Positions 2,239 to 39,561 of a stretch of DNA of 64,000 bases are shown here, piece by piece. Where the stretch lies: the IMG/VR virus record IMGVR_UViG_3300022555_000009. One strand, 5' to 3'. This DNA comes from a virus. The notes beneath the pieces are model-generated. The model was not told where the DNA came from. It saw only the letters and a list, made by a program, of their open reading frames with translations, and did not search any database. Position 1 is the first letter of the stretch. Every line of letters begins with the position of its first letter. The translations under genes and the position numbers were made by a program.

Positions 2239-3594
2239 ATGTCAAGGATACTATTTGATGCGTTTGACACTCAAAGCCCTGTAACCTACCCTGTCTCCAT
2301 AACAGAATCAATATCAAACTCCTCTGACACCTCAAGTGCGGCTACTGGCTCAGCTACCTGGCCAGTAGCCATTGTTGAATCTGGTATAACTTCTGGAGAT
2401 TCTCAGTCCTCTCTTCTGACGGCAGCAGTAACGATTCTTGAAAATGGAACCGTATCTGGCGACTCACAATCCAAGATACTAACGACTTCCGTATCTATTA
2501 CGGAGTCCGGTACTGTTTCAGGCGACTCCTCTTCAGCGATTGCCGGCTCGCCGGTATCTATTACTGAGAGTGGTACAGTATCAGGGGACTCTCAATCCTC
2601 CTCCCTAACAGCCGTGGCGACTATAACGGAGGCTACGAATAGTTCTGATACTGGCGGTGCTACTAGGTACGTACCTGCTTCAATCACAGAGAACGGAGTA
2701 ACCTCAGGGGACTCTTCGACCGGGGTAGCAGGATCTCCTGTTTCCATAACAGAGAGTGGTGTTACTTCCGGTGATACACAATCTAGTTCTTTAATCAATG
2801 TTGTAGCTATCTTAGAAAATGGCACAGTGTCAGGGGATTCCCAGTCAAATACTTTAACTACCACATCTGCGATTGTAGAGCCTACTTCTAGCTCGGATAC
2901 TTCTAGTGCGATCAGATACATTCCTGCCGCTATATCTGAGAGTGGAACTGTGTCAGGAGATTCCTCAACTGGGACCTCAGGTACTCCAGTTGCCGTCGTA
3001 GAGTCAGGAACTGTATCCGGCGATTCTAGCTCAGCTAAGCAAACATTTGTAGTCTCCATTTTAGAAACTAATAATCTTTTAGACTACCCATCTTCTGGTA
3101 GTATTCTAGCTTCAATCGATGAATTTTCTCCTCTCAATGATTCTAGTCAAGTTTATGGCCCTAATAGATTAACTCTCCTAGACGCCGCATCTATTTTTGA
3201 TGTTCTCTCTCATTACCATCGAGGTATTGAAAATTACACAAGATTCTTCGCAGACTTAGTATCTCCGAGGTCTTCTTTGATTGTCTCCAGGATCTTACAC
3301 AGATATGAAAACGATAGCCATGGCGTGACTGATGCTTTATCGCACCCTCCATTATCTCCAAAAAGTCTCATAGCGAGTACAGAATCGATTTATGATGTTC
3401 TTACTTCCTCAAAGTATGGATTAAGCCGAGCTCAGCAAGATAAGGAATCATATACAGATTTTGTTACAGCGTTAAAAATCACCTCATTAAATAGATCTAT
3501 TCACGATACCGAGTCATCTACGGATCGAATGAATAAATCTAACATTATACAGGTGAACCTGTCTACTAATTTAAGTATCAAGGATAACAAATAA
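2239..3594 (+). CDS. Ser/Thr-rich tandem-repeat virion protein
   Basis: About 12-13 repeats of VSITESGTVSGDSxS with ~22-24 aa period. Confidence 0.6.
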   Translation: MSRILFDAFDTQSPVTYPVSITESISNSSDTSSAATGSATWPVAIVESGITSGDSQSSLLTAAVTILENGTVSGDSQSKILTTSVSITESGTVSGDSSSAIAGSPVSITESGTVSGDSQSSSLTAVATITEATNSSDTGGATRYVPASITENGVTSGDSSTGVAGSPVSITESGVTSGDTQSSSLINVVAILENGTVSGDSQSNTLTTTSAIVEPTSSSDTSSAIRYIPAAISESGTVSGDSSTGTSGTPVAVVESGTVSGDSSSAKQTFVVSILETNNLLDYPSSGSILASIDEFSPLNDSSQVYGPNRLTLLDAASIFDVLSHYHRGIENYTRFFADLVSPRSSLIVSRILHRYENDSHGVTDALSHPPLSPKSLIASTESIYDVLTSSKYGLSRAQQDKESYTDFVTALKITSLNRSIHDTESSTDRMNKSNIIQVNLSTNLSIKDNK

Positions 3595-23574: not shown

Positions 23575-23914
23575 TCAAAGTCCAACCGCAGTCGGGAAAC
23601 GCGGCACTGGCAGCTACAGAGTGTATCCTTCACTCATAAGGATGTAGTACTTTCAAACCGGCAAAGAGTTCAAAGCTTGAGAAAGGGATCGGATCCCCGG
23701 AGGCAGGAAGAGACGTACGTCGGTATTCCAGACTCTTTTTTTAATTAAAACAATTAAGATTAAATAAATAAGGTTGCTGGTTGATTCTACCTCGCGCCTA
23801 AACCAACATATGAGCGGGGTTCGTTGCAAAGAATCGGAAAACCTTGAGGAGCATAATGCTCACGAAGGAAACAAGATGTGGTTTTCGAAGTTTCCATTCC
23901 AGTAATTTTCTTAT

Positions 23915-23996
23915 GGGTAGGTCACCTAGTGGCGATGGTAGCGGTCTGTAAAACCGTGACGTAGAAACACCGAAGGTTCGAGTCCTTCTCTGCCCA
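23915..23996 (+). tRNA. tRNA-Tyr(GTA)
   Basis: Cloverleaf with variable arm; CT-GTA-AA loop. Confidence 0.9.
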
Positions 23997-24210
23997 GTAC
24001 CAGTCTAATTCACTGCGGACTTAAATTCAAGTGACGTCATGATGCCCGAGAATTATCCGTTCAAATTACTGCTGGTCAAAACGTAAAAAGAAAAGCAGCG
24101 CATTGTGGGTCCCTGCGTCATGTGCCCATAAAAAAAGAGGTGGTTGTCAGGCGCCTCGTCCGGTAGAACTGATACGAGGGTGGTTCCTTGTGCAGCTGAC
24201 TATTTTTTAT

Positions 24211-24290: not shown

Positions 24291-24454
24291 ATATAAGGTT
24301 ATCCGATCGACTAGTATACAGGCCAAGAGAGGTCGAGTCCAGGTTCGGATTAAAGCGATTACTCGTGGCGAGGCCTTGCTAGCTTCCCGGGTGCTTGAGC
24401 GTAAGGGGGCCAGAACACAGCCCCGCAGCTTGTATATGGTAACCTTTTGTTTTT

Positions 24455-24571
24455 CGGGTGGTGGCCCAGCGGTAGAGGCGGAAGTTATAAAAATGTGTCT
24501 CGTTCAGTAGACATTAACCGCAGCATAAAATAAGGAACTTCTAGTCGTAGGTTCGAATCCTACCTGCCCGG
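24455..24571 (+). tRNA. tRNA interrupted by a ~44-nt hairpin element; spliced anticodon probably AAG (Leu)
   Basis: CGGGTGG/CTGCCCG acceptor, GAAGT/ACTTC anticodon stem with a 51-nt loop; removing 24487-24530 leaves TT-AAG-GA. Confidence 0.7.
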
Positions 24572-24575
24572 CCTA

Positions 24576-24633
24576 TAGACACTTGCAGCAATCAAATAAA
24601 AACAAATCTGTAAAATTTGAAAAAGCGTGTCTA
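24576..24633 (+). ncRNA. Permuted hairpin element enclosing an isolated Tyr(GTA) anticodon stem-loop
   Basis: TAGACAC..CAGCAA..[CAAAT-CTGTAAA-ATTTG]-AAAAA..GTGTCTA. Confidence 0.65.
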
Positions 24634-24655
24634 GTTTTTAAAGTAAGGAGTACAT

Positions 24656-24826
24656 ATGGGAATTGGTGATATGGTTAAACTGAAGAGCGGTGGGCCTAAT
24701 ATGGTGGTGGTATCCTCAATAACCAGAGATGGCTTATGCTGGGTCACAACTAATTGGTTTGGGAAAGATTCAGACGTTAATGTTTACGAAGATTCCTTCC
24801 CAGTAGACTGTCTTTATACTCCATAA
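24656..24826 (+). CDS. YodC / DUF2158 family protein
   Basis: GDMVKLKSGGPNMVV...WF motif; TAAGGAG RBS. Confidence 0.75.
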   Translation: MGIGDMVKLKSGGPNMVVVSSITRDGLCWVTTNWFGKDSDVNVYEDSFPVDCLYTP

Positions 24827-24832
24827 GATTAC

Positions 24833-24905
24833 GGCGTCGTAGCCCAAAGGCAGAGGCAATGGACTTAAAATCCATACAGTTTGGGTTCGAGTCCCAATGG
24901 CGCTA
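24833..24905 (+). tRNA. tRNA-Leu(TAA), short variable loop
   Basis: Cloverleaf; CT-TAA-AA loop. Confidence 0.85.
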
Positions 24906-24909
24906 TTGT

Positions 24910-24982
24910 GGCTTCTTAGCCCAAAGGCAGAGGCGATAGTTTCAAAAACTATACAGTCTGGGTTCGAGTCCCAGAGGAGCTA
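24910..24982 (+). tRNA. tRNA-Leu(CAA), short variable loop
   Basis: Cloverleaf; TT-CAA-AA loop. Confidence 0.85.
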
Positions 24983-25020
24983 TTTTTAGCGGTTCCGTCA
25001 GAAGATGATTGTTGTAAAAC

Positions 25021-26745: not shown

Positions 26746-26859
26746 TAAGACACCTACAGCATAAAAGTTCCGGTTTCGGAAAGTAGCTCAGCAGGTAGAG
26801 CACAGGACCTCCATAAGTACTGGGTCGTTGGTTCGAATCCAACCTAAAAAGGTGTCTTG
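26746..26859 (+). tRNA. Circularly permuted tRNA (anticodon loop contains CAT/CCA) inside a permuted hairpin element
   Basis: 3' acceptor piece TTCCG-G precedes 5' CGGAAAG; gene body ends at CCAAC-CT; flanked by TAAGACACC/GGTGTCTTG. Confidence 0.7.
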
Positions 26860-28827: not shown

Positions 28828-29874
28828 ATGAGTGAAATAAAAAGAAAGCTGGCGACAATTCAAAGTATTGACAAGGTGATTCCAATTGAAGGAGCGGACA
28901 ATATCGTCAAGATTACCTTCAAGAATATCGGATGGTCTTGCGTAACTAATAAAAATTCCAATCCATATGAAGGGAAACAAGTAGTATATCTGGAAGTCGA
29001 TTCCGTTCTCCCTCTTACGAATTCCGCTTTCGCTTTCATGGAGCCTTATCACTATCGCGTTAAGACTATTAAGCTTCGAGGCCAGGTTAGTCAGGGACTT
29101 ACTTTGCCTCTGTCGGATTTCGTTGGAATGTTAACAAACTTCGACCTCGAGGAAGGATATGACCTCACTGATGCACTTGGAATCATTAAATACGAAGCGC
29201 CAGAGCCTGGTCAGCCAGGTATGTGCAAGGGGTCTTTCCCCGGATTCATTATAAAGACAGATGAGGAAAGGGCTCAGAATCTGGGTAACAAGACTATAGA
29301 GAGACTTCTTGCTGAGCATGAATTCGACGCCACTGTTAAGATGGACGGAACAAGCGTCACCTTCTATATCAATGGTATTACAGACGACCCTACTTCCGGA
29401 GAGTTCGGTGTCTGTAGTAGGAATCAGGAACTAAAAAATACAGAAGGAAACGTGTACTGGGGAATGGCTCGTAAATACAACATCGAGGAGCGCCTTCGGG
29501 GCTTGGGCCGAAATCTTGCTATTCAAGGAGAAGTTGCAGGCCCTGGAATTCAGGCTAATAGAGCTAAGCTTAAAGAAGTACAGTTATTTGTTTTTACTGT
29601 CCAGGATATTGATAAGACAACGAGATTCAGCAACGACGAAATTGAACGAATTCTTACCACGATGAATGAATTTGCTGATGGGGAAGAACTTAAGATGGTC
29701 CCTAGGCTAGCAGTACCAACCCTGGCTACCCTTGATGACATTGCGACCCTCGCAGAAGGCACCTGTGTCGTATCTGATTCTATCCGAGAGGGAGTTGTAT
29801 TGCGGGCTAAGGATGACGCAAGTATTAGCTTTAAATTCATTAATCCGAAATATCTCTTGAAACACGATCTATAA
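28828..29874 (+). CDS. ATP-dependent RNA ligase (DRB0094 / Rnl2-like family)
   Basis: N-terminal RKLATIQ..IEGAD OB-like module; KMDGTS, IQGE, EGVV and SFKFIN motifs. Confidence 0.9.
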   Translation: MSEIKRKLATIQSIDKVIPIEGADNIVKITFKNIGWSCVTNKNSNPYEGKQVVYLEVDSVLPLTNSAFAFMEPYHYRVKTIKLRGQVSQGLTLPLSDFVGMLTNFDLEEGYDLTDALGIIKYEAPEPGQPGMCKGSFPGFIIKTDEERAQNLGNKTIERLLAEHEFDATVKMDGTSVTFYINGITDDPTSGEFGVCSRNQELKNTEGNVYWGMARKYNIEERLRGLGRNLAIQGEVAGPGIQANRAKLKEVQLFVFTVQDIDKTTRFSNDEIERILTTMNEFADGEELKMVPRLAVPTLATLDDIATLAEGTCVVSDSIREGVVLRAKDDASISFKFINPKYLLKHDL

Positions 29875-31071: not shown

Positions 31072-31072
31072 T

Positions 31073-31188
31073 TGAACGATAGCTCAGTGGGTAGAGCACG
31101 AAAAAATTAGGTCTTGACAAGACCTAAACTGCAATCCAAAATTAGCCTATTAAGCTCGTGGTCGTGGGTTCGAATCCCACTCGTTCAA
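31073..31188 (+). tRNA. tRNA-Asn(ATT) interrupted by a 43-nt hairpin element in the anticodon stem
   Basis: Removing 31102-31144 restores CGAGC-CTATTAA-GCTCG and a full cloverleaf. Confidence 0.75.
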
Positions 31189-31376
31189 AGTGGGGTCTTG
31201 TTTTACGCGTCATTACGAAGAATTTGTCAGAATAGAAGGTTCGACAGTAAAGCGAAAGCTTTTCATTCTCTCCGTAAAAGAAGCATGATATGCGTAATGA
31301 CGCTTTTGAAAATGGAAGGGTCGGATAATGGTATTCCAGTAGATTGACTTCTGGTATTCCATCAGACTAATTATAT

Positions 31377-39458: not shown

Positions 39459-39489
39459 AAGAATAGGGGGTTCATCAGAACCCCCTCCT

Positions 39490-39560
39490 GTATCCATAGC
39501 CTAGTGGCAAGGTGGGGATCTCTAAAATCCCACACGCGGGTCCGATTCCCGCTGGATGCA
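39490..39560 (+). tRNA. Amber suppressor tRNA (anticodon CTA)
   Basis: GTATCCA/TGGATGC acceptor; GGGAT-CTCTAAA-ATCCC arm. Confidence 0.8.
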
Positions 39561-39561
39561 T

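Follow-up and report, generated by a model that had tools for sequence, protein, structure and literature searches.

A Y-RNA-like handle RNA with a putative tRNA-Tyr anticodon-arm payload in a phage tRNA cluster

The IMG/VR record IMGVR_UViG_3300022555_000009 is a 170.6-kb phage genome with terminal repeats, and its DNA is present in five DNA metagenome runs from lakes. The 64,000-nt stretch of this genome analysed here (hereafter the window) carries more than 26 plus-strand tRNA genes, which are clustered (Table 1). At 24576-24634 lies a short element preceded by a tRNA, whose discriminator base (24571) stands 4 nt ahead of TAGACAC, and followed by a T5 run and the ribosome-binding site (RBS) of a small DUF2158 gene. 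The ends of the element, TAGACAC and GTGTCTA, form 7 perfect pairs in a continuous helix that lacks 3-nt bulges and encloses 44 nt. On rereading the sequence, all sequence details given in the first-pass annotation were confirmed, the hairpin included: CAAAT-CTGTAAA-ATTTG, with the loop of the phage's own tRNA-Tyr, lies between two element halves. In addition, the loop-adjacent pair (positions 31-39) is T-A in both the tRNA and the hairpin. Two further observations of that annotation were confirmed, namely that AGACAC (24577-24582) is complementary to GTGTCT inside the insert of the upstream tRNA, and that this interrupted tRNA is real, being recognised both by ARAGORN with introns allowed and by the Rfam tRNA model. 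A terminator scan found no intrinsic terminator at 24576-24634, where the stem encloses 44 nt and not a loop of 3-8 nt, and the terminator and promoter scans gave no signal exceeding shuffle level. Searches for close relatives by blastn against a phage collection returned tRNA-Leu matches only, and a protein-based scan using the M23 peptidase encoded 550 nt downstream found none.

Table 1. Features of the element at 24576-24634 and of related loci in the window.
Feature	Sequence and position	Strand	Remarks
Terminal stem, 5' strand	TAGACAC, 24576-24582	+	7-bp stem; invariant core AGAC
Bulge motif	TTG 24583-85 and CAGCAA 24586-91	+	Family consensus NNA-CAGCAA; CAGCA invariant (alignment A3)
A/T-rich linker	TCAAATAAAAA, 24592-24602	+	Includes TCAAAT (24592-97), a competing pairing partner
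Putative anticodon-arm mimic	CAAAT 24603-07, loop CTGTAAA 24608-14, ATTTG 24615-19	+	5-bp stem
A-run and 2 nt	AAAAAGC, 24620-24626	+	A3 consensus AAAAAAn ahead of GTGTCT
Terminal stem, 3' strand	GTGTCTA 24627-33, then near-invariant G 24634	+	
tRNA-Tyr(GTA) of the phage	23914-23997, anticodon loop 23946-52	+	7-nt loop identical to CTGTAAA of 24608-14
Small DUF2158 gene	24656-24826		RBS 12 nt beyond the terminal stem
tRNA interrupted in the anticodon loop by a closed-hairpin handle	24455-24573	+	ARAGORN -i; Rfam tRNA 36.9 bits
44-nt insert of tRNA 24455-24573	24487-24530	+	A-run, GTGTCT 24495-500, AGACAT 24509-14, CAGCA 24521-25
Second terminal-stem handle copy	26746-26859	+	R1 23.2 bits, R2 23.4 bits
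RNA ligase (PHA02142 OB domain and RNA_ligase)	28828-29874	+	Sole RNA-repair-type gene found near the handle RNAs of the phage
tRNA with a handle hairpin in the 5' strand of its anticodon stem, between nt 29 and 30	31072-31189 (hairpin ~31102-31144)	+	

The paired ends and the motifs beside them form what we call the handle, which consists of a 7-bp stem with an AGAC/GUCU core, an unpaired NNN-CAGCAA, an A-run 1-3 nt ahead of the 3' strand, and a trailing G one base past the stem (alignment A3). In an alignment of 55 copies, 98.7% of the terminal-stem cells are paired and four of the pairs covary. The seventh pair, which was not imposed by the searches, is AU in 28 copies, UA in 17, GC in 3, CG and GU in 1 each, and unpaired in 5, and in matches found by the core only, positions 5-6 are paired in 28 of 29 cases. 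Neighbouring units of an array differ in their stem variants, as in L367, where AGACGT/ACGTCT stands beside AGACAT/ATGTCT; therefore, the pairing spans the cargo and not the spacer between units, and thus the unit is strand-CAGCAA-payload-A-run-strand, which is the design of a Y RNA. The first-pass annotation had instead regarded the locus as the permuted form of a splicing element. We found no support for this framing, or for excision, circularisation or trans-splicing of the cargo: the b-cargo-a order is the native and common form of the family, with a terminal stem and a bulge as in Y RNAs, and the units form tandem arrays on the strand of Ro60-like genes, with stem variants covarying across the cargo and not across the spacer. 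A reading of the short cargo as an exon between two introns was also rejected, given this covariation and the absence of the partner halves here and in most relatives.

Pattern scans of IMG/VR revealed the closed form of the handle within tRNA genes of many large phage contigs, a split form with cargos of 60-98 nt that encloses tRNA parts, and, likewise common, a split form with short cargos; further copies came from a metagenome scan. In about two thirds of the family members the payload is not an anticodon arm. One lineage carries a T-arm, a closed acceptor hairpin and a D-arm as payload inside the handle, which the YrlA model (RF02553) scores at 37-44 bits. At L136, the payload of the handle RNA at 1664-1792 matches YrlA (RF02553, 44.5 bits) and is followed by an additional handle unit with a tRNA part (1856-1969); a RAGATH-33 RNA (RF03102, 128.6 bits, above threshold) is located at 1353-1480, 200 nt upstream of the first unit. 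At L315, handle RNAs stand on either side of the Ro60-like gene (1218-1278 and 3076-3142); the payload of the first ends at its 3' side in GTGCGTAGGT, which is complementary to ACCTA..TGCAT at the 5' start of its counterpart in the second RNA, at a distance of 1.8 kb. Rfam searches at the gathering score and at E <= 10 yielded only tRNA and a 13-bit match to Class I RNA. The handle RNAs are a widespread phage RNA family for which we found neither an Rfam entry nor a description in the literature on phage tRNA introns, permuted phage tRNAs, anticodon stem-loop decoys and DUF2828.

The copy at 24576-24634 belongs to this family. All handle features are present (TTG-CAGCAA, AAAAA-GC and G 24634), and the sole deviation is a G before CAGCAA, where most family members have an A. 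Covariance model R2, built from 115 copies located beside Ro60-like genes of other phages and from no others, gives its best match in the 64-kb window at 24575-24634 (47.9 bits, E 6e-9), a test that is not fully independent because the seed rows of R2 were picked with model R1, which contained the sequence of this copy. R1 itself scores the copy at 56.3 bits.

A regular-expression scan found four handle copies in this phage, two as closed hairpins within tRNA genes and two in the terminal-stem form, with the order AGAC-strand, CAGCA, A-run, GTCT-strand (24576-24634 and 26746-26859). The second terminal-stem copy encloses a tRNA-like body (Rfam tRNA 31.8 bits on 26782-26845) with an acceptor stem closed by G-TTT and an 8-nt anticodon loop, CTCCATAA; its topology recalls YrlA, and the Rfam YrlA model does not match it. 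Removal of the 44-nt insert from the tRNA at 24455-24573 would leave the loop TTAAGGA (anticodon AAG) on a body whose variable loop is short, unlike that of a normal bacterial tRNA-Leu, and the locus may be a tRNA body carried on a handle rather than a spliced tRNA. At 31072-31189, removal of the insert restores CGAGC/GCUCG with the loop CTATTAA (anticodon ATT), and a handle between nt 29 and 30 is also found in tRNA-Asn(GTT) of more than 15 IMG/VR contigs (e.g. L003). Pfam and PHROG scans of the neighbouring ORFs identified only homing endonucleases and the RNA ligase; a splicing endonuclease was not found. Homologues of the ligase directly follow a handle RNA in two other phage lineages, an arrangement that is rare overall (7 of 80 Ro60-like loci).

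In many other phages, the handle RNAs adjoin a gene for a protein of ~500 aa with Pfam domains DUF2828 and DUF7788, a weak vWA_Ro60 match and a C-terminal ...RY..VE.A motif. At least 24 of the 39 distinct short copies found by DNA pattern lie within ~600 nt of a DUF2828/DUF7788 ORF, many at a distance of 3-60 nt, and all 21 scored copies are on the strand of this gene, 13 upstream and 8 downstream. As a reverse test against ascertainment bias, 80 loci were fetched by the Ro60-like protein alone, and 75 of them were searched with R1, which had been built from A3. This gave 182 matches, 181 of them on the gene strand, with matches at E <= 1e-3 in at least 48 of the 75 loci and at E <= 0.05 in ~64. 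They are typically located just upstream or downstream of the Ro60-like gene and are frequently tandem. An AlphaFold model of the DUF2828/vWA protein, based on a 37-row alignment, has a pLDDT of 88, and its top Foldseek matches consist entirely of Ro60/TROVE structures (full-length alignments, probability 1.0, TM scores of 0.55-0.62), among them the Ro60 proteins of Xenopus, human and Thermus phage phiLo and the Rsr of Deinococcus. A sequence search against the PDB gave no match for the protein, and the fold search alone succeeded. On the basis of the predicted structure, the handle-adjacent DUF2828 protein is Ro60-like. No such gene was found in the 170.6-kb genome studied here by tblastn, by the three Pfam models TROVE, DUF2828 and DUF7788, or by profile A2; all five other handle-bearing phages tested have one.

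The first-pass annotation had suggested checking whether homologous elements carry other anticodon loops or random loops, and we found canonical loops of several tRNAs, far above chance. In a set of 75 distinct short copies, an HU-NNN-R-N loop on a stem of 4 bp or more occurs in 24, compared to 5.1 +/- 2.1 in shuffles, and on a stem of 5 bp or more in 21 (vs. 1.9 in shuffles). In the unbiased set collected beside Ro60-like genes, a stem of at least 5 bp and a 7-nt loop of the anticodon type occur in 37 of 115 copies, compared to 3.7 after shuffling (maximum 11). The identities of these 37 are Lys UUU (10), Ser UGA (7-8), Asn GUU (4), Ser GCU (2-3), Ile GAU (2-4), Cys GCA (2), and Thr, Pro and Phe (one each). 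The stems in this set are mostly exactly 5 bp long, several of them contain GA...UC pairs of the kind often seen in genuine anticodon stems, and single phages hold more than one anticodon identity. Loops of the family include CTTTTAA (Lys), CTGTTAA (Asn), CTTGTAA (Thr), CTGCTAA and CTTGAAA (Ser), CTGATAA (Ile), CTGCAAA (Cys), TTTGGGA (Pro), CTTCTAA (Arg) and TTGTAAA (Tyr), and examples among the early short cargos are TTCAA-CTTTTAA-TTGAA and TTTGA-CTTTTAA-TCAAA (both Lys), TTCAA-CTTCTAA-TTGAA (Arg UCU) and TATAA-TTTGGGA-TTATA (Pro). Since relatives carry canonical anticodon loops, a bait or decoy role directed at proteins that read anticodons remains a live idea.

The Tyr hairpin at 24603-24619 likewise exceeds chance. 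Of 200,000 shuffles of the cargo, 0.5% yielded a hairpin of at least 5 bp with a 7-nt HU-NNN-R-N loop, and 0.01% yielded such a hairpin with a loop equal to that of any tRNA anticodon loop of the phage. The predicted ensemble (ViennaRNA) gives the anticodon-arm register a probability of 0.00, the arm stem having no stability on its own, and a rival register that pairs UCAAAU (24592-97) with AUUUGA (24615-20) reaches 0.88-0.99. In 11 of 17 relatives the anticodon arm has a probability above 0.5. At 24603-24619, the anticodon-arm register is favoured by comparison with relatives only.

Several known RNA systems share features with the handle RNAs. To our knowledge, the Ro60-Y RNA particle is conserved and poorly understood, and the tRNA-like part of bacterial Y RNAs is without a known role. 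Y RNAs that mimic tRNA adjoin Ro60 genes in bacteria and phages (PMC4201824), and the Ro60 gene of phage phiLo is preceded by two Y-like RNAs (Yrl1 and Yrl2), in which a bulge motif accompanies the 5'-3' stem (PMC12135203). As in these Y RNAs (YrlA/YrlB, RF02553; phiLo), the ends of the handle RNAs pair into a stem beside a conserved unpaired motif, the genes lie beside and on the same strand as a gene of the Ro60 fold, frequently in several copies, and the variable part mimics tRNA. Their handle (AGAC/GUCU stem, ACAGCAA and A-run), however, differs from the Ro-binding helix of YrlA, their predicted protein partner belongs to the DUF2828/DUF7788 branch and not to Pfam TROVE, and their payload is frequently no more than an anticodon arm bearing a specific anticodon, for which YrlA has no counterpart. 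Even at E <= 10, no YrlA match was obtained at 24400-24700, and relatives with tRNA-like payloads score 37-44 bits against a YrlA threshold of 69; no member of the family reaches the Rfam threshold. The payload of 24576-24634 is a 17-nt hairpin without a T-arm, D-arm or closed acceptor-like stem of the YrlA type.

A second likeness is to the Class I RNAs of Dictyostelium, which, like the handle copy described here, are ~60 nt long and combine a short 5'-3' stem and an adjacent 11-nt motif with a variable remainder (PMC7919456). These eukaryotic RNAs are reported in dictyostelids only and bind the RRM protein Rnp1A (PMC7919456). The sequence CUUGCAGCAAU (24582-24592) matches the RF01414 motif consensus CUUACAGCAAU at 10 of 11 positions and occupies the same place beside the 5' stem strand, and the RF01414 model scores the copy at 24576-24634 at 13.2-13.8 bits against a threshold of 41.5. 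The two families have in common only this design of a stem plus an 11-nt motif. Class I RNAs have no reported anticodon-arm payloads or link to Ro60, and their dictyostelid origin and DUSE promoter contrast with the phage context found here. The near-identity of the two motifs is an unexplained lead.

Permuted and intron-containing tRNA genes, as known from archaea and Cyanidioschyzon merolae (PMC3978253, PMC3218864), also have conserved pairing sequences on both sides of a tRNA part, and in this phage a single motif is found in a closed (intron-like) as well as a split (permuted) arrangement. In contrast to those genes, a bulge-helix-bulge motif and a splicing endonuclease are absent here, and the cargo is 17-33 nt long and not a tRNA. 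Finally, the tRNAs Lys, Thr and Asn of phage T5 rescue infection from PARIS (PMC11464382, PMC12409363). Such rescue tRNAs share their identities with the handle arms (Lys UUU, Thr UGU and Asn GUU; Tyr for Septu), and both are found with phage tRNA clusters. However, rescue tRNAs are complete and functional and replace the cut host tRNAs, whereas the handle payload is a bare arm, which cannot be charged and so could at most act as bait. The PARIS nuclease AriB targets the tRNAs Lys UUU, Thr UGU and Asn GUU (PMC12409363), and Septu targets tRNA-Tyr (PMC13096335). The overlap between the mimicked identities (Lys UUU, Thr UGU, Asn GUU and Tyr) and the targets of tRNA-cutting defence is circumstantial.

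On balance, we lean towards the interpretation of 24576-24634 as a small non-coding RNA in which a Y-RNA-like handle is combined with a mimic of the Tyr anticodon arm that engages an anticodon-reading factor. Judging from the gene neighbourhood in other phages, the handle would most likely be a docking site for a ring protein of the Ro60 family (DUF2828 and vWA). The payload would copy nothing but the anticodon arm of tRNA-Tyr(GUA) and engage a protein that reads or cuts such arms, with a tRNA-targeting defence nuclease, a modification enzyme or a repair ligase as candidates. The handle RNA may thereby act as bait or tether in a conflict over tRNAs, the most attractive specific role being that of a nuclease bait, and it probably derives from the same transcript as the upstream tRNA 4 nt away. 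With no Ro60-like protein encoded by the phage itself, a Ro60-like partner would need to be supplied by the host, or this copy would work with another protein, e.g. the nearby RNA ligase.

A more specific scenario, which we put forward only tentatively, would make the handle RNAs counter-defence bait for nucleases or sensors of the PARIS, PrrC, Septu or retron type, with the Ro60-like ring, sometimes together with an RNA ligase, trapping the nuclease or repairing the damage. The copy described here would then be a Tyr bait in a phage without its own Ro60, and its handle would have a second partner. The occurrence of the handle within tRNA genes is not fully explained by the Y-RNA reading; these closed-hairpin copies may be tRNA bodies on a handle, or true inserts that are later removed.

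The alternative that survives best, which we nevertheless regard as unlikely, is that the copy is a true family member in decay, a functionless relic that was left after loss of the Ro60-like gene or that arrived with shuffled DNA of the tRNA cluster. The Ro60-like gene is indeed absent from this genome and present in 5/5 other handle-bearing phages, the weak stem of the anticodon arm is out-competed by another register, a G replaces the consensus A before CAGCAA, and homing endonucleases and rearrangements abound in the tRNA cluster. However, the handle is intact, with a perfect 7-bp stem, CAGCAA, A5 and the trailing G, and has the top model score in the window; the loop is still the exact tRNA-Tyr loop, and the persistence of four handle copies in the phage argues for use.

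We consider it distinctly unlikely that the locus is a permuted element resembling a tRNA intron, from which an endonuclease and a ligase (e.g. 28828-29874) would release the anticodon arm as a circle, serving as a nuclease-resistant decoy or an exchangeable cassette. The closed hairpin does interrupt tRNA genes and its removal gives a clean anticodon stem (31072-31189; tRNA-Asn(GTT) in many IMG/VR contigs), the halves also bracket tRNA-like bodies, and an RNA ligase is encoded in the tRNA cluster, with a homologue directly after a handle RNA in two other lineages. Yet in the three cases with fixed borders, the presumed splice sites precede the A-run by 0 or 7 nt and follow CAGCA at a distance of 6 to 13 nt, and since these unique exon borders lie at varying distances from the motifs, no cutting rule emerged from them. 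The lack of a bulge-helix-bulge motif and of a splicing endonuclease, noted above, argues against processing as well. Rnl5-like ligases (DraRnl, NgrRnl) seal nicked duplexes, and the ends of a hairpin cargo would not form such a substrate; furthermore, the terminal-stem form is the common one and tracks Ro60-like genes, and a ligase is adjacent in only seven of the 80 Ro60-like loci.

Even less probable is a signal acting in cis, which would mark the 3' end of the tRNA transcript or control the DUF2158 gene, with the loop read by a tRNA-binding regulator as in the thrS operator. A location after a tRNA and ahead of an RBS, where the stem is followed by a T5 run, would suit such a signal, as would the many copies in other phages that lie in the leader of the Ro60-like gene (13 of 21 are upstream). 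On the other hand, the downstream gene varies among phages, 8 of the 21 copies are downstream of the Ro60-like gene, a leader would not be expected to form tandem arrays of units, and the scan found no terminator-like site. That an A/T-rich intergenic inverted repeat merely happens to contain CTGTAAA is scarcely credible: the hairpin has no predicted stability and the region is A/T-rich, but the R2 E-value of 6e-9, the shuffle probabilities of 0.5% and 0.01%, and the family-wide enrichment of anticodon arms speak against chance.

If the handle RNAs are phage Y-like RNAs that present exact anticodon arms, swapped between phages, this would give the tRNA-like part of such RNAs a testable role, namely recognition by an anticodon reader. 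With Lys, Thr, Asn and Tyr among the known targets, there is a direct link to work on tRNA-cutting defence. To this, the window contributes a handle copy that is an orphan, its phage having no gene for the ring protein. The window further shows the handle as a terminal stem and as a hairpin within tRNA genes side by side, and this dual use alters the reading of supposed tRNA "introns" and "permuted tRNAs" in such phages.

Further observations concern other parts of the window. On the minus strand, opposite to all tRNAs, 23728-23790 gives a weak match to the models (31 and 22 bits); we treat it as doubtful, a degenerate copy or a chance match, because AGAA replaces the invariant AGAC and there is no stable fold. 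Two tandem paralogous tRNAs of 73 and 75 nt at 24833-24983 have Leu anticodons (TAA and CAA) and short variable loops, whereas a long-arm tRNA-Leu is usual in bacteria. Finally, the tRNA at 39489-39561 has the anticodon CTA of the amber suppressor type (ARAGORN: Pyl), which hints at stop-codon reassignment or suppression in this phage.
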